From: Fistulifera solaris
Taxonomy: Eukaryota
DNA: 64,000 bases
Reading direction: 5' to 3'
NCBI GenBank assembly: GCA_030295235.1
Contig: AP026125.1
Span: forward strand, 930,001 to 994,000
The position numbers and the translations under genes were made by a program. Under the pieces are notes generated by a model, which saw only the letters and a program-made list of their open reading frames with translations, made no database searches and had not been told where the DNA came from. Positions 28,410-58,424 of the stretch are shown in pieces; position 1 is the stretch's first letter, and every line of letters starts with the position of its first letter.

Positions 28410-30128
28410 TTAGCATGACCACCATATCTGCAGGGCTGCGCGAATACCTGCTCGAACCGGCAAACGACACCGCCTGTTTTCTATTCCACCAGTAGATACG
28501 AGCACTCGACCTCGCGCGCCTTCAATTGAAATACCGCGCTGAATTTTACGGCGTGGGCGATAGTTGTCGGGGTGATTGTCAACGTAAAGAGCGGCGCCAC
28601 CGTGAAAATCCTCGCCACTCCCTTCTGATAGAAAGACAGTTGTTTGTATCGAAAACGAGGGATCTGCTTCCAAGTCGGCCAACAGATTGCAAACATCCCT
28701 CACCGGCTCTATGTTGAATGGCCAAGGAAGCGAATAGAGGGCCATGTCGTTCCGTCTTTCTGCCTTGTCCATCCAAAGCAGATAATTTGTACGATTCAGC
28801 AACTTTTCGAGTCGACTCGGAATTCGTCGGTCGAAAAGGCGAACTCCATTTCCGTCCATCGGTCCGACAGCGTTGACACGAAAAGCAACAGGTTGAATCT
28901 CTTGTGATACATTGTAGTGCGTCGACAGTAAATCGCGTAACTTGGTTACAACGGAGGGAACCATTGCTTGTAATAAGTCCACGTCGCGATGAATATCAAA
29001 ATGGTCGCCACCATGAGATATCAAATTTGCTCCCAACACACGAGCATCGAGCACTTCTTGATCTAAAATAAGATTGTCGTGAACTCCTCGAAAGCACAGT
29101 TTAGTAGCGGCTTTTGATGTCCTTCGTCCGGGTAGTACTGAACTGATACAGGATTGCGGAGCAATGCAAGAGGATGACGATGAAAGGGATTGTGTTGGCG
29201 CAGCGCACTCCATAAACCAAGAAGCTTGCACTCCACGCTCAATGAATGGTGCCAGAACGTTGATTTCTTCCGTCGACTTTGACTTCAAAAAGATATCGAC
29301 AATACTCTTCATCGACGGTATATGAAGAACGCCTCGGCTACAATCGACTTTGCTAGAAATTCTTAAAACCTCTTTGATAAAATCAATGAGATGAAACGGT
29401 CGTGAGTCTCTGTGCAAGATCGGGCACTCTTTTGCATGTACAAGCAGCAATTTTACATTCAGTATCTCCGACATGAGAGGATCTAATACGGGTCTTTCAA
29501 CGGCACTGTAATGAAAAATGGGTATCGTTTGGAGCATGATGCATATAAATGCGGTCACCACCATTAGAACGGCAAAACAGATGCGTCGGAAAGTCAAACT
29601 AGGTTGATGTCGTTCATTCGGATTCACCGGAATAAGCATTAAGTCGTCCTCGGGTACACCTTGTTCAAGATAGCGTCGCACTGCCCTCGCTATAGCATCG
29701 GCAGCAGCTTGTTCCTGTCGGCGCAACCAGAGATGCTCATCTTCATCACCGTGCCTATCGTTATTATTATTTGGTCGAGGTGGTGGTGGCAGGTCTCCAG
29801 CAGGAGGCTGCGGTGGATGTGATGTAGGTACGAGTCGTCCGAATTCATCGACGCGGGCATCGCCAATCTTGTGTTTCTGCATCAAATCATGGAGCTCGAG
29901 TCGACGTTTTCGATAGGCCCGCACCTGTTGCTGGTATCCGTCATTGGTGTTATCGGCTGGCAGATCCTTGCCCATGCAAAAGTCGGAAATGTCTTCATTG
30001 GTCAGGTTCTTTCGTTCCAAAAGGAGATGGGCGTCCAGTGAGTAATATTTGTAGCGATACAATTGCGAGGGCTCTTTCTTGCCGTCATGCGACCCCCCTT
30101 TTCTCCGCCGGGCAGAAGATGTTCTCAT
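28410..30128 (-). CDS. Type II membrane protein with OGFOD3-like 2OG-Fe(II) oxygenase fold, probably catalytically degenerate
   Basis: Single TM (ICFAVLMVVTAFICIML); C-terminal TTVFLS..EDFHGG..GRVLVSTGGIEN..V..GIR.ALQIWW resembles the P4H/OGFOD3 jelly-roll. Confidence 0.65.
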   Translation of the reverse strand: MRTSSARRRKGGSHDGKKEPSQLYRYKYYSLDAHLLLERKNLTNEDISDFCMGKDLPADNTNDGYQQQVRAYRKRRLELHDLMQKHKIGDARVDEFGRLVPTSHPPQPPAGDLPPPPRPNNNNDRHGDEDEHLWLRRQEQAAADAIARAVRRYLEQGVPEDDLMLIPVNPNERHQPSLTFRRICFAVLMVVTAFICIMLQTIPIFHYSAVERPVLDPLMSEILNVKLLLVHAKECPILHRDSRPFHLIDFIKEVLRISSKVDCSRGVLHIPSMKSIVDIFLKSKSTEEINVLAPFIERGVQASWFMECAAPTQSLSSSSSCIAPQSCISSVLPGRRTSKAATKLCFRGVHDNLILDQEVLDARVLGANLISHGGDHFDIHRDVDLLQAMVPSVVTKLRDLLSTHYNVSQEIQPVAFRVNAVGPMDGNGVRLFDRRIPSRLEKLLNRTNYLLWMDKAERRNDMALYSLPWPFNIEPVRDVCNLLADLEADPSFSIQTTVFLSEGSGEDFHGGAALYVDNHPDNYRPRRKIQRGISIEGARGRVLVSTGGIENRRCRLPVRAGIRAALQIWWSC

Positions 30129-30360
30129 TATTCGTTTACGGGCTACAGCAGGCTCAGAAACCGAAAGAAAACATGCTGTGTCCTCTATAATATGAATTTA
30201 AGGAGCAAACAGCACGTTATGATTGATCTGAAGTGGTACGAATATGTAAGATTACAAACTTAACACCTGGTATCAGGATTTATGATGAACGGCGTACCTG
30301 GTAGCCGTATTTTTTCTATAGCGGAGTACCAGGTATACCAGTATAATGCATGCAAACCCA

Positions 30361-32515
30361 CTCCAGATTTTCTGGAAGACACAAAGACCTTCTCCAGAAT
30401 TTCTGGACTATCCACAGAATTTCTGTATGACGATATCGCGAATTCCAGAATTTCTGGAATTTGCACAGAAACACTGTTTGATGAAAATTACCACGTCCAG
30501 ACTAATGTGAAACCACACAGAATTTCGGTATGATCCAAAACAACGAGGTCCAAAGTTATTTTGACGTGCACATGTTTTCTGTGAGATGGAAACATGGAAA
30601 CACCTGGTCCAGAATTTCTGGACCATCCACAGAATTTCTGTATGTCCATATCACAATTTCCAGAATTTCTGTATGACGAGATCGCGAATTCCAGAATTTC
30701 TGGAATTACCACGTCCAGACTAATGTGAAACCACACAGAATTTCGGTATGATCCAAAACAACGAGGTCCAATGTTATTTTGACGTGCACATGTTTTCTGT
30801 GAGATGGAAACATGGAAACACCTGGTCCAGAATTTCTGGACCATCCACAGAATTTCTGTATGACGATATCGCACTTTCCAGAATTTCTGTATGACGAGAT
30901 CGCGAATTCCAGAATTTCTGGAATTTGCACAGAAATGCTGTTTGATGAAAATTACCACGTCCAGACTAATGTGAAACGACACCGAATTTCGGTATGATCC
31001 AAAGCAACGAGGTCCAATGTTATTTTGACGCGCACATGTTTTCTGTGAGATGGAAACATGGAAACACCTGGTCCAGAATTTCTGGACCATCCACAGAATT
31101 TCTGTATGACGATATCGCGAATTCCAGAATTTCTGGAATTAGCACAGAAACGCTGTTTTATAAAATTTACCACGTCCAGACTAATGTGAAACGACACCGA
31201 ATATCGGGTTGATCCAAAACAACGAGGTCCTATGTTATTTTGACGCGCACATGTTTTCTGTGAGATGGAAACATGGAAACACCTGGTCCAGAATTTCTTG
31301 ACCATCCACAGAATTTCTGTATGACGATATCGCATTTTCCAGAATTTCTGGAATTTGCACAGAAATGCTGTTTGATGAAAATTACCACGTCCAGACTAAT
31401 GTGAAACGACACCGAATTTCGGTATGATCCAAAGCAACGAGGTCCAATGTTATTTTGACGCGCACATGTTTTCTGTGAGATGGAAACATGGAAACACCTG
31501 GTCCAGAATTTCTGGACCATCCACAGAATTTCTGTATGACGATATCGCGAATTCCAGAATTTCTGGAATTAGCACAGAAACGCTGTTTTATAAAATTTAC
31601 CACGTCCAGACTAATATGAAACGACGCCGAATATCGGGTTGATCCAAAACAACGAGGTCCAATGTTATTTTGACGCGCACATTTTTTCTGTGAGATGGAA
31701 ACATGGAAACACCTGGTCCAGAATTTCTTGACCATCCACAGAATTTCTGTATGACGATATCGCATTTTCCAGAATTTCTGGAATTAGCACAGAAACGCTG
31801 TTTTATAAAATTTACCACGTCCAGACTAATGTGAAACGACGCCGAATATCGGGTTGATCCAAAACAACGAGGCCCAAAGTTATTTTGACGCGCACATTTT
31901 TTCTGTGAGATGGAAACATGGAAACACCTGGTCCAGAATTTCTTGACCATCCACAGAATTTCTGTATGACGATATCGCATTTTCCAGAATTTCTGGAATT
32001 TGCACAGAAATGCTGTTTGATGAAAATTACCACGTCCAGACTAATGTGAAACGACACCGAATTTCGGTATGATCCAAAGCAACGAGGTCCAATGTTATTT
32101 TGACGCGCACATGTTTTCTGTGAGATGGAAACATGGAAACACCTGGTCCAGAATTTCTTGACCATCCACAGAATTTCTGAATGACGATATCGCATTTTCC
32201 AGAATTTCTGGAATTTGCACAGAAACGCTGTTTTATAAAAATTACCACGTCCAGACTAATGTGAAACGACACCGAATATCGGGTTGATCCAAAACAACGA
32301 GGTCCTATGTTATTTTGACGTCCACATGTTTTCTGTGAGATGGAAACACCTGGTCCAGAATTTCTTGACCATCCACAGAATTTCTGTATGACGATATCGC
32401 ACTTTCCAGAATTTCAGTTCTGTACACCTTACCAGTACGTATGATTAACCTCTACCAGAATCTCTGAATCGTTCCTGATAACTTACAAAGATTTTTTCCA
32501 GAATTTCTGGAATTT
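30361..32515. repeat. Higher-order tandem array, 215-bp unit x ~9.5, built from ~52-bp palindromic monomers
   Basis: ACCACGTCCAGACTAAT at ~30490, 30708, 30954, 31169, 31384, 31599, 31814, 32029, 32244; many CCAGAATTTCTGG palindromes. Confidence 0.97.
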
Positions 32516-32702: not shown

Positions 32703-33670
32703 ATGAACGCTTCGAGCTACACAAAGACAATTATGAGGTTACGCAGAGCGTTGGACCGAGTCCGCTTCATGGTACTTGCATTACCGCTCCTCCCTTTGCT
32801 CTTTGAAGCAGACTCCTCGCAGTATTATGGCAATCGGAGATTACAGGTCGCGTCAGAAACATTCCAACAGGTTCCGGTTGCATACAAAGATCAGTTCCCT
32901 TTGGATTCAACTGTTCATTGCATCGGTGGAACTTTTGGATTGTTCCATGAAAACGACTGGCTGTACCGTTCCTGTGAATTTCGCAACATTTGCTTCGACC
33001 TGAGCGCTCAAGAATTTGTCTTGTTTCCGTCGAAAGAAGAGCAGGAACTTGCAGAACTTCTCAAAACGAATCCAATAGTTTCTGTGTCGACAGTCAGTTC
33101 GCCGTCGTTTCAAGTTGCGCTTAGTGCAGTAGATCCTCCCGATCCGAGTCAGCTTGATGACCGAGCGAGAATGGAAGTGCACAAAAGAACTTATCGTGGT
33201 TTCCTCTGGTCAGAAACACGAAGGCCACCAAAGGATATTACGAACTCCCTGAATCGCATATTTTTGTCCCTTTCCAAGAAAGCCATCCGATGTCACCGGA
33301 TTCCCTCGTCAACAAAGATTTCCTTTCCTTGTTTACCCTACTTTACGAATTCGGACTGGAAGAAAAGAAGCCGATTTTCATCCGACATGGGACTCATCTT
33401 CCTCTTTGCGACAAAAAGTGTGAAATATTGCTAAAGACTCATTTGCAAATCGACGCTTCCAAACCGATCCTTTCCGGAATTGACCATCGATCTAGCGACT
33501 TAGTGTGCGCCAAGTATGGAGTCGCAGGACTAGGTATGCGTATGACAGGAACGCGTCCTGTTCGTGACAAGGATGGCTCGTGGTTATATACACATACCGT
33601 TGGACGCCATGCTACGAAACGGGCATTTCAGAAATACATGGAAACTTGGGAAAAGACAGCGCGGGATTGA
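32703..33670 (+). CDS. Secreted/membrane protein resembling the N-terminal part of GT61-like glycosyltransferases
   Basis: Hydrophobic anchor, RRLQ, VHCIG, YRSCEFRNICFD, VCAKYGVAGLG..HTVGR; indel between ORFs 32703-33434 and 33290-33670. Confidence 0.5.
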
Positions 33671-51817: not shown

Positions 51818-52687
51818 ATGAGACATATCGGAGCCTTGTTGACGATTGTACCTGTAGTACATGCATTTGTCCCTCTCATCGATGGCGGAACAGATATCCC
51901 AACATTCTACAAATCATGGTTTGACGACCAAATCGTGAAGCAAGCATCGACAGCTGTAGAAAAAGCCATTGCGGCGGGCAATAAGAAAATCGAAGTAAAC
52001 TTTCCAGCTGTTCCCAACGTGGAAGAAGCCAAGTTCGGAACCTCTTTGAACCAAAAATTCGGAACGACGGTCGTTGCCAGAGAACTCAAAATTGCGGGAG
52101 GATACACACCCGGTTCGGACATTGCCCGAAATCTGATTGCTTACAGCAATGTTTACTGGGCAAAGAAAATAGCACCCGCCGTCGGAGGAGGCTTACTGGG
52201 TGGGCGCCCAGTGACGGTCGTGACACCCGAGCAAGTGAACATAAAACAGATCCAGTCTCGTGGGGCTATGTCTCAGATTTTGTCATTGAAGATGAGTAAA
52301 GGCGTCGAAGTGAAACAAGGAGGGGCTCTAATAGCTATCAACCCTGGCGGTGAAGAAACTTGGGATCGCATTCAATCGGCGTTTGGCAATGGGTCGCCCA
52401 TGGTCGTACTCAACAACGCTTACTCGACAACCTACGGCTTGGGCAACAAACGAGGATACGAAGAAGCTTACTTTGTCAAACGGATATCCAAGGGCTGGAT
52501 CTTCCGTTGTTTCCCTGGCCCTTGGAAGGCGTATCTGGAGAAACCCGATGGAAGTTGTGAACTCTTGGAGACGTACTCTACGAAGCCGGAACTCAACGTC
52601 GTAGCAACACGTGTTCGCGATGAGTCATTTAAACGATATGCGATCAACAATGATCGATGGTTTCCGGGACAGGGTCAAAGACTCTAA
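51818..52687 (+). CDS. DUF1995-family plastid protein
   Basis: VHA-FVP presequence; IEVNFP, VVLN, YFVKRISKGWIFRCFPGPW. Confidence 0.75.
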   Translation: MRHIGALLTIVPVVHAFVPLIDGGTDIPTFYKSWFDDQIVKQASTAVEKAIAAGNKKIEVNFPAVPNVEEAKFGTSLNQKFGTTVVARELKIAGGYTPGSDIARNLIAYSNVYWAKKIAPAVGGGLLGGRPVTVVTPEQVNIKQIQSRGAMSQILSLKMSKGVEVKQGGALIAINPGGEETWDRIQSAFGNGSPMVVLNNAYSTTYGLGNKRGYEEAYFVKRISKGWIFRCFPGPWKAYLEKPDGSCELLETYSTKPELNVVATRVRDESFKRYAINNDRWFPGQGQRL

Positions 52688-52879
52688 ATCAATGCATCAA
52701 AATATTAGTGATGTCCCCTGTTGACGTTGTCGAGCTTGCCTAGATTACGTTTGAATGACTTTGTAGTCGTTCAATACCGTCGATTTCTCTAATTAAATTT
52801 GTTGTGTTATCTAGATTTTCATCTCTTTAATGATAAGACAAGTAACGAATAACGAGCACTATCAAGCCTAACCGCAATT

Positions 52880-53321
<442 letters not shown>

Positions 53322-53477
53322 TTCGAATTTTTAATGAATAAACAGCGGTAACAAGAGAAGGATGGATTACAAAAATCAATCAACGCTACCAATGAAATGC
53401 TGAACTTTTGTTACAGTATTTACCAGTATGTGTTGCATTGTTGCATTGGACCGAACGGACTACAATGTCTCTTCGTC

Positions 53478-53710
53478 TCCAGAAAAACTGGGCAAGTGCT
53501 ATCATGACACTCCCAGAAAATCTGGGAATGAGGTATTTTCACATATCCAGAAAACCTGGGTAAGTGGTATTATGGCGTTCCCAGAAAACCAGAGCATGTG
53601 GTACTTGCACGTATCCAGAAAACCTGGAGAAGTGACATCATTAGGTGATCAGAAAACCTGGGGGAGTGGTACAGTATTTGCTATTTGCACGTGTCCAGAA
53701 AACCGGGGCA
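53478..53710. repeat. 34-bp-period ladder of CCAGAAAA(C/T)CTGGG motifs
   Basis: Motif at 53479, 53513, 53547, 53581, 53615, 53649 and ~53695 with diverged 20-nt linkers. Confidence 0.9.
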
Positions 53711-53724
53711 GGAAATTTACCAGA

Positions 53725-54700
53725 TTCCAGAATTTCTGGAAAATGCACAAAATCATTGTGTGACGGAAAGCCCCGATCCCGAAATATCTGAAACGTGCAC
53801 CGAATCTCTGTGCCCACCCAATCACCTAATCCAAAATATTTGGAAGTCTCGCCGAGCGTCTGTACGACCCAATACCAGGGTACACCGAGTCCAGAATATC
53901 TGGACCTGCCACAGAATTTCTGTGTGACCGAAATACCGATCCCAGAATTTCTGGAATTAGAAAAAATGTTACTTTGAATCCGAAACACGGATCCCAAAAT
54001 TCCTGGAAAGTGCACAAAAGCTTTGTGCGACGCAGAGCACCTAATCCAAAATATCGGGAATTCTCAAAGAATGTCTGCACGACCTAAAACAGCGATTCCA
54101 GAACTTCTGGAAAATGCACAAAATCATTGTGTGACGGAAAGCCCCGATCCCGAAATATCTGAAACGTGCACCGAATCTCTGTGCCCACCCAATCACCTAA
54201 TCCAAAATATTTGGAAGTCTCGCCGAGCGTCTGTACGACCCAATACCAGGGTACACCGAGTCCAGAATATCTGGACCTGCCACAGAATTTCTGTGTGACC
54301 GAAATACCGATCCCAGAATTTCTGGAATTAGAAAAAATGTTACTTTGAATCCGAAACACGGATCCCAAAATTCCTGGAAAGTGCACAAAAGCTTTGTGCG
54401 ACGCAGAGCACCTAATCCAAAATATCGGGAATTCTCAAAGAATGTCTGCACGACCTAAAACAGCGATTCCAGAACTTCTGGAAAATACACAAAATCATTG
54501 TCTGACGAAAAGCCCCGATCCCGAAACATCTGAAACGTGCACCGAATCTCTGTGCCCACCCAATCACCTAATCCAAAATATCTGGAAGTCTCGCCGAGCG
54601 TCTGTACGACCCAATAGACCGAGTCCAGAATATCTGGACCTGTCACGGAATTTCTGTGTTTACGAGATGCCGATTCCAGAATTTCTGGAATTAGAAAAAA
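53725..54700. repeat. Higher-order tandem array, 371-bp unit x ~2.6 (seven ~52-bp palindromic monomers per unit)
   Basis: Unit starts at ~53725, 54096 and 54467; monomer starts at 53727, 53779, 53831, 53891, 53942, 53994, 54046. Confidence 0.97.
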
Positions 54701-54734
54701 TTATATTTTATACGTCCTTGGGACTACTACCGCA

Positions 54735-54860
54735 CCAGACAACCAGGGCATGTGCTATTTGCACTTGTCCAGAAAATCTGGGCATTTAGTACTTGTCCAG
54801 AAAATCTGGGGATGTGGCATTTTCACTTGCCCAGAATTTGGGCAGGTCACGCCCAGATTC
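54735..54860. repeat. Right-hand ladder of CCAGAAAATCTGGG motifs
   Basis: Motif at ~54735, 54769, 54797 and 54831, in the same orientation as the left ladder. Confidence 0.85.
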
Positions 54861-54945
54861 TTTCAAACGCAGTACGTATAACAATATTATCTTTTGTCTA
54901 TAAGTCTACAATAGCTAATAATTTCGGCAAGGAAAATAAAATCCC

Positions 54946-57900
54946 TCATTGGAAGAAGTACTTAGCAGATCGTACCTCACTGAGATCAAGGTCACCGCGC
55001 TCTGGAAGAGGTGGAAATTCTAGATCCGGATATCGCATTTTCCAGTCAGCTAAAAGGATAGAGTAAGCTACATGCAAGGCGTCGAATTCTGCAACATCAC
55101 AACGGGACATGACGTACCAAGTTGCTCTTCCAAGAGCGGCCTTTCATACAGTTCAACAAATGTATCTCGTAGCGCCATATTCATTTCATCTATGTCACAA
55201 GGGTGAGTCCAGAATGAGTCGTGGACAGCAGAAAAGCTAAGTCCACGTCGATCCATCTCGAGAGCAGTAAACAGCATATGAGAAGCGTCCAGTGAATGTA
55301 CAAAATTTGGTGGAAATGCTGACACTTGTCGACTTGAGTGCAAAGGCAAATCGTCATTGCTTTCGATCAGAGAAACAACTTGCATCAGCGTTACAACTTT
55401 GGATGACTTCTTTCGTCTGTATGGTTGAATTGCCGGTAACCCGATGGGTGAAATCCACGCCACAGGATAACCTAGTTGAGTGATCATCCGGGCACAAGTT
55501 GTAAGCCAATTCATCGTTTCTTTTGCTCCCGTAAATACTTGACCCATTACCTCCATCGTTACTCGTGCCAGATATCCACAAGCACGAAAAACTTCAAGAT
55601 TCATCTCATCGATATCACACCCGAGACTCTCCAGCTGAGGGCACGAAATAACAATAAGAACAAAATCGACATATGTAAATCAATCGCTTCGCGTTTATTA
55701 CCAACCTTCTCTTCAATTTTTTCCTGAATTTGTTGTCTAGCACCAATGTACGTTACCCCATACACACTGGTCATCACAGTTCTTTTGACAACTCCACGAT
55801 CAATCAAACCATCGACAAGCTTAGCAGCTCTGTTGTTCGCAAGAATTTTCTTTTGTTTCCTGGTAAGCGCCTCAACATCGCTAGTATCGAAATCAATCGT
55901 TTGCGAAGCTTCCTCAGCTACGCGCCGAATGACTTCAGTCATTACACCCGAGTACACATCCTGTGGCTTGTCGGTATTGCGAAGATTCACCGCCTTTCCT
56001 CCAACCGCATCTCGTCCTAGTGCTGCGTAATGCTGCAAGCCATTACAAGAGCCATCCATATGTACAGGCAAGTTACACATGTAGGATTCAGGATCTCCTG
56101 AATCTATCGCAGCAATAATTTCAGCACACGCAGCAAGTCCCTGGAAAGGATCGTCTAATGTCATCCACCATCGATCACCAGCAAACGGATCCTCGACAGA
56201 AGCTCGTACTTTATCAATATTTTCATCAATGTAGGCAGCTCGTTCTTCTAAAGTCACTTTGTCTTTACCCGCAAAATTGGCGAGATGTACTTTCAACCAA
56301 AAAAGACCCCTCGGCCCGAGCGGCTTAGCCTCTGCAAACTTTAGTAGACCACGACACAGATCCGACCCAACAATCGAAAGATGCGGCGTGATGGGGTAAA
56401 CACGACCACGGAAATCCATGTTGTAAGGGAAGTATATCTCTTTAAAATCTTTGAATTTGTCAGCCTGATCAAGCTTGAGAACAACTGAACATCTTAGAGA
56501 GACCAGGTCCTGCAAATATTGTTTGTGGTCAGCTCGCTATTCCATGGGATCAACAAGACTCATGAAGCACTTACCGAGTTTCTTTGGCGCATTCTATCGT
56601 ATCTGGCACGAGCTTCGCGGTAGGCTCGCATCTCAGAAATGTAGCTATCATACTCAGGATGCCCCTTTTCAAGCTTCTGAGTTGGCCGCTCTGGTCTAAT
56701 AGGCTCCGGAGGTACTTCAAAGTCTGTCTTAGACGGAATATCCCCAATAGCTATGTTCCGTGCCCAGCACTCCTCCGCCACCGACAAAATTCTCTTGTTG
56801 ATTACCCAAGGAATCTTTGAAAGCGAATTTAACCCATCGTACACAGTATTCAAATTTGCGTGATTAAGTGCCTCCTAAAGCATTGTTAGATCGACTCTCA
56901 GACAGAACGAGTCCCAACAGCGTGCTACATCACGTACCAGTTGAAGATCGCATCCATGATACCTTACGATATCACTTTTTAGCCACAGATAACCACCCTC
57001 TTTTGGTTTCGTCCACGGTTTTGGAGGTAAAATCATAGGCTTTTGCCTTGTCGTTGTTTGAGAGAAGCTTTGTAATCTATCGCTGATGACCATATTCCGA
57101 AGTTTCTCGTTGAGAGTTACATATGCTCGCGACTTGTCTTTCCTTGTCCATCTTTTCTCGAAAACAAAAGCTGGCTCACCTTTTCTACCACCGTCTTTAA
57201 CCGTTGCACAGTCAAGAAGAACTTTGAAAAGTGCCGCACCGAGTTGTATTTTATCGCGTTCCGTCCACTGCTCATCGTTTTCAAGAACTTGTCTGGCTCG
57301 CCAAATTGCGAACGACGCCAGTCTTTGGCTCTTAGGCTTGAACTCCTTTAATTCGTCTAGATAATTCTGAAGATGAGAAGTGGAATAAGTCCATCTTTTC
57401 GTAGGATCTTCCTCGGCTGCCTTTATCTTGCCTTCCCCTAAAAATCCACCGTCGCGCGCATTCGAACTATTTACATCGTCGTTTTCAGGCTCATCGTCAG
57501 TGGCTTCATCGTCTAGTATGTTTGACACATTCAGTACGGAAGCTCTGGCTTGTGACTCTTTATATCTCTGATGAAGAACTCTTTGAATAATGACTTCGTC
57601 TTCAACAGCTTGCCCTAACTGCCTCGCAATCACCGAGAAAGGAGTACCGTGTAGACTATTATTGCTGTTGGTCAACGTTTCCATGATTGCCGTGTGAGCA
57701 GCGATAACAGCCAGCTTTGCCGGTGGTAGCGTACAAAGAAATGGACCAAACCGTTGAGCTGATTTCGAAACATCGCCCTCCGACTTTTCCCGAAAAATGT
57801 AATCTTTTGTCTCTTTTCGATAGCATCTACCAGCGGTTGAAACCACCATAACACCTGGCGCTGAACCAAAGATAGACTAGAATAATCTTTCCTTTTTCTC

Positions 57901-58424
57901 GCGCTTTCAATGACTTTCTGGTATTTGAGTACAGCTTCTTGTTGCGCCTCACACTCTAGCCACAATTGCAACTCTTCGAGATTGTCCATGGACGGAGGTT
58001 TTTGAGGGTCGAATCGATTCAGCATTTCGGCGGGAGACAGCCCCAAATCAAGTGCACGACCATCATCCGCTGACTCTAACACGTCACTAACGTCACTATT
58101 CTCTGCTTCATAAGATACATCTTCGCCCAATTCTAAATCCAAAGTACGACCGCCCCACGAAATCGAATCCCGCTTCTGAAATTCTTTCCGATGCGGAAAC
58201 ATTTCCGCTATCGACTGGGCAGTAATATATTCCACACGTTCATCGACTTCATCATCCATATTATCTGTCGACGCCCAATGCGCCAAGACAGGCCGTGAAC
58301 TGAAATCGGTTTGCCGAAACGGCAAGGCCCGTTCGTTGACGGCGCGGCGCCTCCGCGAAGCTCCCAGCCGCCACAAGCGCACATGTTGCGCGGTCCGCCG
58401 CGATATCACAATGGCTGCTTGCAT
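54946..58424 (-). CDS. RPOT: Nuclear-encoded mitochondrial T7-type single-subunit RNA polymerase
   Basis: DFRGRVYP, PVHMDGSCNGLQHYAALGRD, RGVVKRTVMTSVYGVT, FPPNFVHSLDASH, VHDSFWTH, terminal KYFFQ; several introns and an indel near 57790. Confidence 0.96.

Follow-up and report, generated by a model that had tools for sequence, protein, structure and literature searches.

Positions 53478-54866 of the 64,000-nucleotide (nt) stretch of Fistulifera solaris DNA analysed here (contig AP026125.1, positions 930,001 to 994,000 of the forward strand; hereafter the window) form a composite repeat block, which lies between the 5' region of a gene for the dynein light chain LC8 and the poly(A) site of an organellar-type RNA polymerase gene. 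Within it, two ladders of a 34-base-pair (bp) unit, each unit carrying a short dyad motif, stand on either side of a central array of 52-bp monomers. We consider it probable (roughly 0.6) that the block is a non-coding composite satellite, in which an old ladder was split by a young array belonging to another dispersed family. An initial annotation of this DNA had recognised the layout of ladder, higher-order array and ladder in one orientation, which proved to be real, and had proposed an organised element with subterminal transposase-binding repeats or iterons, which we could not uphold, since the ladders are direct repeats and neither terminal inverted repeats, nor a target-site duplication, a gene or a transposon domain accompany them. 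From left to right, the block is composed as follows:

53478..53693, + strand: left ladder units L1-L6, five 34-bp monomers followed by L6 of 46 bp (nhmmer E 1.5e-8 to 9e-4)
53694..53725, + strand: junction unit L7, 32 nt, with the ladder-type dyad CCAGAAAACCGGGG (nhmmer E=0.092)
53726..54701, + strand: core array, its 52-bp monomers of seven types making up a 371-bp higher-order unit that is present about 2.6 times
54702..54733, + strand: 32-nt stretch of non-repeat sequence joining the truncated final core monomer to the right ladder
54734..54829, + strand: right ladder units R1-R3, of 34, 28 and 34 bp (nhmmer E 3.2e-9 to 1.1e-3)
54830..54866, + strand: terminal degenerate unit R4, its dyad bearing a deletion (CCAGAATTTGGG), with unique sequence beyond

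The ladder motif, CCAGAAAAYCTGG(G), recurs at 34-bp intervals and always on the + strand: the left ladder (53478-53725) holds seven copies, the final two in irregular units, and the right one (54734-54866) holds three to four. Left copies start at 53479, 53513, 53547, 53581, 53615 and 53649 in steps of 34 bp and then, after a step of 46 bp, at 53695, while those on the right start at 54735 (degenerate), 54769, 54797 (a 28-bp step) and 54831 (truncated). The initial annotation had the positions and spacing of the six left copies from 53479 to 53649 correct, as it did the approximately four reappearances on the right in the same orientation; the four linkers that it quoted were each found letter for letter, and the kinship it saw between the motif and the core palindrome is borne out by 11/13 positions shared between ladder and core dyads. 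Its exact motif, CCAGAAAA(C/T)CTGGG, is present in two of the six copies cited (53513 and 53547), the other four departing from it by one to three mismatches.

With up to two mismatches allowed, CCAGAAAAYCTGG matches 70 times in the window against 3.62 expected, a count reached by none of 100 shuffles. The general dyad CCAGAAWWTCTGG, with at most one mismatch, yields 74 matches against 0.36 expected, and all 74 are confined to two arrays, 30363-32510 and 53479-54809. A chance origin of the recurrence is excluded. Tandem Repeats Finder reports the left ladder both at period 34 (53479-53634, 4.6 copies, 70% matches) and at period 68 (53478-53641, 2.4 copies, 79% matches), and the right ladder at period 34 (54735-54836, 3.2 copies, 71% matches). 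Searching the window with a hidden Markov model (HMM) of the 34-mer (nhmmer) returned nine units at E<0.01, every one of which falls in the two ladders.

Alignment of 11 units placed the dyad motif at positions 2-15 of the 34-nt ladder unit, followed by a linker of 19-20 nt. Mean pairwise identity across the seven full-length units (21 pairs) is 0.857 for the dyad motif, 0.583 for the linker and 0.696 overall; of all 34 possible 14-column blocks of the unit, the motif block is the best conserved, and four linker columns are invariant. The linkers are homologous to one another and for that reason are not spacers, which, at a mean pairwise identity of 0.58, agrees with the earlier statement that this is not a spacer-acquiring array of clustered regularly interspaced short palindromic repeats (CRISPR). 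In the left ladder, A-type units (L1, L3 and L5) alternate with B-type units (L2 and L4) to give a 68-bp dimer: over 34 positions, A-A and B-B pairs match at 24-27/34 and adjacent A-B pairs at 19-24/34, an alternation in agreement with the 68-bp period. On the right, R1-R3 are all B-type, with R1 matching L4 at 27/34 and R3 matching L2 at 28/34.

Both ladders become irregular in places. L6 contains a 12-nt internal duplication, and L7, which adjoins the first 52-mer, has an aberrant tail that ends in GAT as core monomers do. The dyad of R1 is degenerate, R2 is a short unit of 28 nt, and a local duplication of 28 bp (54757-54810, 92%) lies within the right ladder. A segment common to the ends of L7 and R4, GGGCAGG-N6/7-CCAGATTC, scored 16, a value among the higher scores of 1000 shuffles, whose maximum was 26, and was dropped as unproven. 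The ladder dyad has AAY at its centre, against TTT in the core dyad, and is weakly palindromic, with four constant paired positions and an asymmetric, A-rich centre that is itself conserved; here the sequence has been kept, and not just the symmetry. Folded as single strands, the left ladder is weakly better than its shuffles (z = -1.88, 8/200 as good) and the right ladder moderately better (z = -3.79, 0/200 as good).

The core array is reported by Tandem Repeats Finder at period 371 (53723-54701, 2.7 copies, 96% matches), and segmentation divides the 371-bp unit into seven monomers of 51-60 nt. Copies 1 and 2 agree at 370/371 positions and copies 3 and 2 at 221/242, whereas the monomer types match at 0.64 on average, far below the identity between units. 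Compared with the 0.70 overall identity of ladder units, the values between core copies suggest that the core is younger than the ladder. In core monomers a change in one arm of the dyad is paired with one in the other, so that symmetry is retained, as where CCAAA...TTTGG stands next to CCAGA...TCTGG. The seven ladder linkers were compared with what remains of 11 core monomers, drawn from both arrays of the window, once the dyad is set aside; none rose above shuffled linkers, 123-300 of 300 shuffles being equal or better. Ladder and core are thus different repeat families, with only the 13-15-nt dyad CCAGAA-NNN-CTGG in common. We also considered the 34-mer as a deletion derivative of the 52-mer, which is unsupported, the linkers fitting the 52-mer no better than shuffles do.

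The two ladders would be halves of a single one, as suggested by the common orientation of all units and by the right-hand units being B-type relatives of those on the left. The units that abut the core are mutual closest relatives: 53676-53710 and 54750-54784 are 89% identical, while the other nine copies reach 60-80% to the same reference, and L6-L7 is colinear with R1-R2. As in tandem satellites and minisatellites, the units are arranged head to tail, are non-coding, are homologous along their whole length and occur at several loci.

We therefore picture the history of the block, in conditional terms, as one of satellite turnover. The 34-bp ladders would represent the older component, a diverged minisatellite whose family is dispersed. 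The 52-bp monomers, with their 371-bp higher-order unit, would be a younger array that arose or was inserted inside the single ancestral ladder and split it; the core would then have expanded through unequal exchange or replication slippage. Tandem Repeats Finder reports periods of 28, 31, 34, 52, 68, 215, 371 and 430 bp in the window, and so many periods fit frequent unequal exchange or slippage anchored at the common dyad. In both families the dyad is the part that is kept best, probably as the microhomology or hairpin-prone start site for slippage and exchange, and possibly also because a dimeric protein binds it. The succession of ladder, array and ladder would be a by-product of this turnover and would not mark out the ends of any machine.

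Contigs of four public runs were compared with 52300-56300 at 80% likeness; one of the DNA runs may be the assembly's own source. The left ladder, with its flank and the start of the core, is covered without differences by record 2 of run X1 (53208-53752) and record 11 of run X2 (53286-53752), and the right ladder with its junctions by X1 record 5 (54618-55254; two other letters, one gap) and X2 record 13 (54587-54922). In X2, a DNA run from a single organism, 13 contigs part from the window before 53513, another 13 do so behind 53560, and 16 behind 54836; ladder-like sequence follows in two of the three groups, those before 53513 and behind 54836. Ladder-like 34-mers are carried by at least 13-16 further contigs, and the family is multi-locus. 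In keeping with this, contig depth in X2, summed over contigs, reaches 336 and 324 in the bins of the ladders, 7-10 times the value of about 31-48 in unique flanking sequence. The initial annotation had regarded uniqueness of the ladder to this locus, combined with a motif no better conserved than the linkers in orthologous loci, as something that would speak against it; further contigs of run X2 carry ladder-like units, so the ladder is not unique. Among the loose ends listed, contigs that share the ladder diverge within it (53513, 53560, 54836) and not at a common outer end. To the left of 53724, 10-12 contigs continue in other, core-like sequence, which means that core-type arrays without a ladder exist.

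In run X8, which has low coverage and comes from a second organism, we found a ladder-like match of 43 nt with 8 differences and more ladder-like sequence around it. The same run has a 218-nt contig identical to core positions 53751-53968, and its copy of the neighbouring RNA polymerase gene shows 31-33 differences over about 200-234 positions; either genomes or subgenomes that have diverged hold the repeat in common, or the assembly of that gene captured its other homeolog alone. Record 6 of run X1 (814 nt, ~90% like the end of the RNA polymerase gene) has 449 nt of unlike sequence where the right ladder would be expected, at a threshold of 80% that a diverged ladder would not pass.

Beyond these runs, a double-dyad pattern was found at two loci among viral contigs, both of them unrelated coding repeats, and at 46 loci among metagenome contigs. 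The metagenome loci match the cores only over 20-46 nt centred on the dyad, none of the 46 has BLAST similarity to either ladder, and, having been selected by the dyad pattern itself, they are no evidence of homology. Three of them (L028, L036 and L048) look like coding repeats. The dyad CCAGAA-NNN-CTGG also occurs in unrelated environmental satellites (L012, 19 bp; L034, 20 bp; L038/L043, 56 bp; L020, 56-58 bp), maybe by chance.

Several points weigh against the composite satellite. Strict layered expansion does not describe the block: the flanking ladder monomers share only the dyad with the core monomers. The evidence for the split consists of a few extra matches (31/35 against at most 28/35) at a single locus, and both the split ladder and the satellite reading are built on the 64-kb window and on run contigs. 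The depths in X2, being totals over contigs, do not give copy numbers. The dyad is better kept than the linker and is common to two otherwise unrelated repeats, a hint of some sequence-specific function for which a purely neutral satellite would have no use. Finally, three of the four array borders have the motif TACCAGTAY immediately outside them and the fourth has a related 10-mer, which the composite-satellite model leaves unexplained.

The block occupies an intergenic gap in gene-dense euchromatin of a Fistulifera-type diatom. For one neighbouring ORF the best protein match, at 90% identity, is a Fistulifera solaris protein, and its further hits come from diatoms. The neighbouring genes, and the second array of the window, are:

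52836..53321, - strand: dynein light chain LC8 gene, left neighbour (Pfam Dynein_light E 8.8e-7 on exon 1)
54893..58424, - strand: phage-type single-subunit (organellar) RNA polymerase gene, right neighbour (Pfam RNA_pol 2.8e-81, RPOL_N 4.1e-38)
30363..32510, + strand: the other 52-mer array of the window, in 215/430-bp units, between two diverging ORFs (open reading frames)

The LC8 start codon is at 53321, and the left ladder begins 157 bp upstream of this ATG. Run X3 is presumed to be RNA, its contigs behaving like complementary DNA (cDNA) in skipping introns and having a poly-T end. Both LC8 introns (52988-53088 and 53142-53206) are skipped in X3 contigs, and the polymerase gene has at least one intron, of 68 nt (55050-55117; X3 joint 55049 -> 55118); in the two genes the skipped segments have CT..AC ends on the + strand, corresponding to GT..AG on the gene strand. 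The poly-T loose end of one X3 contig marks the polymerase poly(A) site at ~54893; the right ladder ends 27 bp away from it. This cDNA-like run has no contig over 53372-54845, which does not show the block to be silent.

No plausible gene was found within the block, whose ORFs are repeat read-through. On the + strand, ORFs of 75-115 amino acids (53428-53763, 54071-54298 and 54442-54789) cross the ladders and the core and are at risk of being miscalled in automatic annotation. Across the 34 window ORFs of at least 200 amino acids, Pfam revealed ordinary cellular domains alone, with no transposase, integrase, reverse-transcriptase, Cas or other transposon domain. The Rfam search of the block gave 0 matches, and the phage collection showed no similarity to it.

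By the 34-mer HMM search, the array at 30363-32510 is without a 34-bp ladder. An isolated ladder-type dyad, CCAGAAAATCTGG, lies on the minus strand at its left edge (30363-30375; nhmmer E 0.044). Inside this array, 30630-30702 and 30848-30920 show a 31-bp sub-period (2.4 copies, 85-90%) made of a dyad variant and an 18-nt tail, a ladder-like plan of dyad and short linker in which the linker sequence is different.

Of the other explanations, it is conceivable, though we would not expect it, that the block is an array of protein-binding sites, the dyad being the putative site of a sequence-specific and probably dimeric DNA-binding protein and the arrays acting as a promoter-proximal enhancer, insulator, chromatin boundary or protein sink for LC8. 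Such a role would suit the difference in identity between dyad and linker (0.857 vs 0.583), the sharing of the dyad by two families without other similarity and the paired changes by which core monomers preserve its symmetry. The dyad arms, at 4-7 bp, are short for a stable cruciform and would better fit a protein site. Both arrays of the window also stand a short way upstream of genes: one is 157 bp from the LC8 ATG, the other ~235 bp from the ORF start at 30128 and ~190 bp from that at 32703. In so compact a genome, however, nearly every intergenic site is near a gene start. Against a promoter motif stands its distribution, with 74/74 dyads in the two arrays and 0 copies in ~35 other gene-flanking regions, which would be unusual; the ladder dyads, moreover, are weakly palindromic, with 4 paired positions and an asymmetric A-tract at the centre. 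Such an array is "iteron-like" only in the loose sense of repeated binding sites. A likeness of the core dyad to heat-shock-factor half-sites fails for the ladder units.

We regard it as unlikely that the block is a non-autonomous mobile element, perhaps extending out to the TACCAGTAY motifs (~53421-54879), that was moved by a transposase or site-specific recombinase and whose ladders are subterminal binding arrays. The organised, bracketed layout and the dispersal of both families over several loci are compatible with such an element. So is the border motif: TACCAGTAY occurs four times in the window against 0.36 expected, with three + strand copies no more than 60 nt from array borders (30336, 32430 and 53421), and a related sequence, CAGTACGTAT, is common to the two right borders. 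Integration of the recombinase type leaves direct repeats of a short core on both sides. As a flanking duplication, however, TACCAGTAY is imperfect, at 8/8 for array 1 and 6/8 for array 2; moreover, an 8-mer common to three of four zones turned up in 68/2000 random zone sets, and the motif, having been noticed post hoc, is suggestive at most. Chance, a promoter motif and a recombination core are all candidate explanations of these border motifs. Their sites are 30336-30344, 32430-32442, 53421-53429 and 54870-54879, and a further sequence, GATTACAAA, is common to the two left flanks (30250 and 53365), in the same order.

The structure of the block itself also speaks against an element of this kind. 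The ladders are direct, not inverted, and no terminal inverted repeats were seen beyond the dyad, all 11 inverted-repeat pairs in 53300-55000 being dyad on dyad. There is no target-site duplication at 53478/54866, a flank alignment score of 14 lies below the shuffle range, and aligning the flanks of the two arrays with each other gives scores no better than those of shuffles. The second array (30363-32510) has no ladders, divergence among the contigs listed falls inside the ladder and not at a common end, and the 34 window ORFs hold no transposase, integrase or reverse-transcriptase domain.

A related proposal, which we hold to be improbable, takes the dyad CCAGAA-NNN-CTGG as the putative recognition site of a dimeric protein such as a tyrosine recombinase (Crypton-type) or a host DNA-binding factor. 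The arrays would then have been seeded or moved by site-specific recombination of circular copies, and the ladders would be an older landing pad or binding platform. Such a site would explain both why the dyad is kept in two otherwise unrelated families and why the arrays stand as cassettes in intergenic gaps, bounded by the short direct core TACCAGTAY.

A CRISPR-like repeat-spacer array or an assembly artefact can practically be dismissed, the only resemblance being the superficial pattern of a repeat and a 20-nt variable segment, whereas the locus is eukaryotic and nuclear with spliced and polyadenylated neighbours, the "spacers" show homology among themselves and with ladder copies elsewhere, the repeats themselves vary, and two DNA runs have contigs that reproduce the ladders and junctions without differences. 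Iterons of a replication origin were likewise rejected, the locus being chromosomal, between the LC8 and RNA polymerase genes, and without similarity in the phage collection.

Diatom satellite DNA has hardly been described. We found no published description of the block repeat under Fistulifera tandem repeats, diatom satellites or minisatellites, or the motif, in a literature that included passages of the assembly preprint (10.1101/2021.11.10.468027) apart from its supplements on 'small-scale repeated elements'. Within that scope, the block is an undescribed dispersed satellite DNA with a higher-order core and, as it stands, probably an ordinary product of satellite turnover. The locus offers a small, fully readable example of nesting between two repeat families that share one dyad module. 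A catalogue of such arrays would improve repeat masking and the annotation of gene promoters in an oil-producing diatom that serves in engineering, and, if the dyad does bind a protein, it would give a handle on the function of promoter-proximal repeats.

Among known systems, CRISPR arrays resemble the ladders in alternating a repeat of ~14 nt with a segment of ~20 nt at a fixed period; the present locus differs from them in being eukaryotic, in having homologous "spacers" (0.58) and variable repeats, and in the absence of cas domains from the window ORFs. Subterminal transposase-binding repeats are a feature of class II transposons, for example CACTA/En-Spm and hAT. With CACTA and hAT elements, and with plasmid iterons, the block shares regularly spaced short motifs in blocks of 100-250 bp on either side of a central segment. 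It differs from class II transposons in that its blocks are direct, not mirrored, and in that no terminal inverted repeats, target-site duplication or autonomous partner were found in the window; iterons, for their part, are features of plasmid or viral origins accompanied by a Rep gene, and none is present here.

Short dyad symmetries and sites of the CENP-B-box type have been described as a conserved module of otherwise fast-evolving satellites (Kasinathan and Henikoff 2018, PMC5889037). The block is similar in that its dyad, of less than 10 bp per arm, is the most conserved part and is common to unrelated monomers. It differs from dyad-rich and CENP-B-box satellites in having no link to a centromere, and its folding z of -1.9 (left) and -3.8 (right) is no evidence for non-B DNA. 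According to the portions of the assembly preprint used here (10.1101/2021.11.10.468027), putative F. solaris centromeres are short, low in G+C and without highly repeated elements, and the three centromere/autonomously replicating sequence (ARS) motifs given there differ in sequence from the block repeats.

Primate alpha satellite, in which a homogeneous higher-order core is flanked by diverged monomers through "layered expansion" (for example PMC11062924), offers a further comparison. Here the block covers ~1.4 kb of a euchromatic intergenic gap and not a megabase centromere, and its 34-bp flanking units are not older copies of the 52-bp core monomer, with which they have the 13-15-nt dyad in common. 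The likeness lies in the arrangement: near-identical core copies (370/371), head to tail, stand between more diverged repeats of the same orientation (0.70), and the newest copies are central while the copy at the edge is older (copy 3 at 91%).

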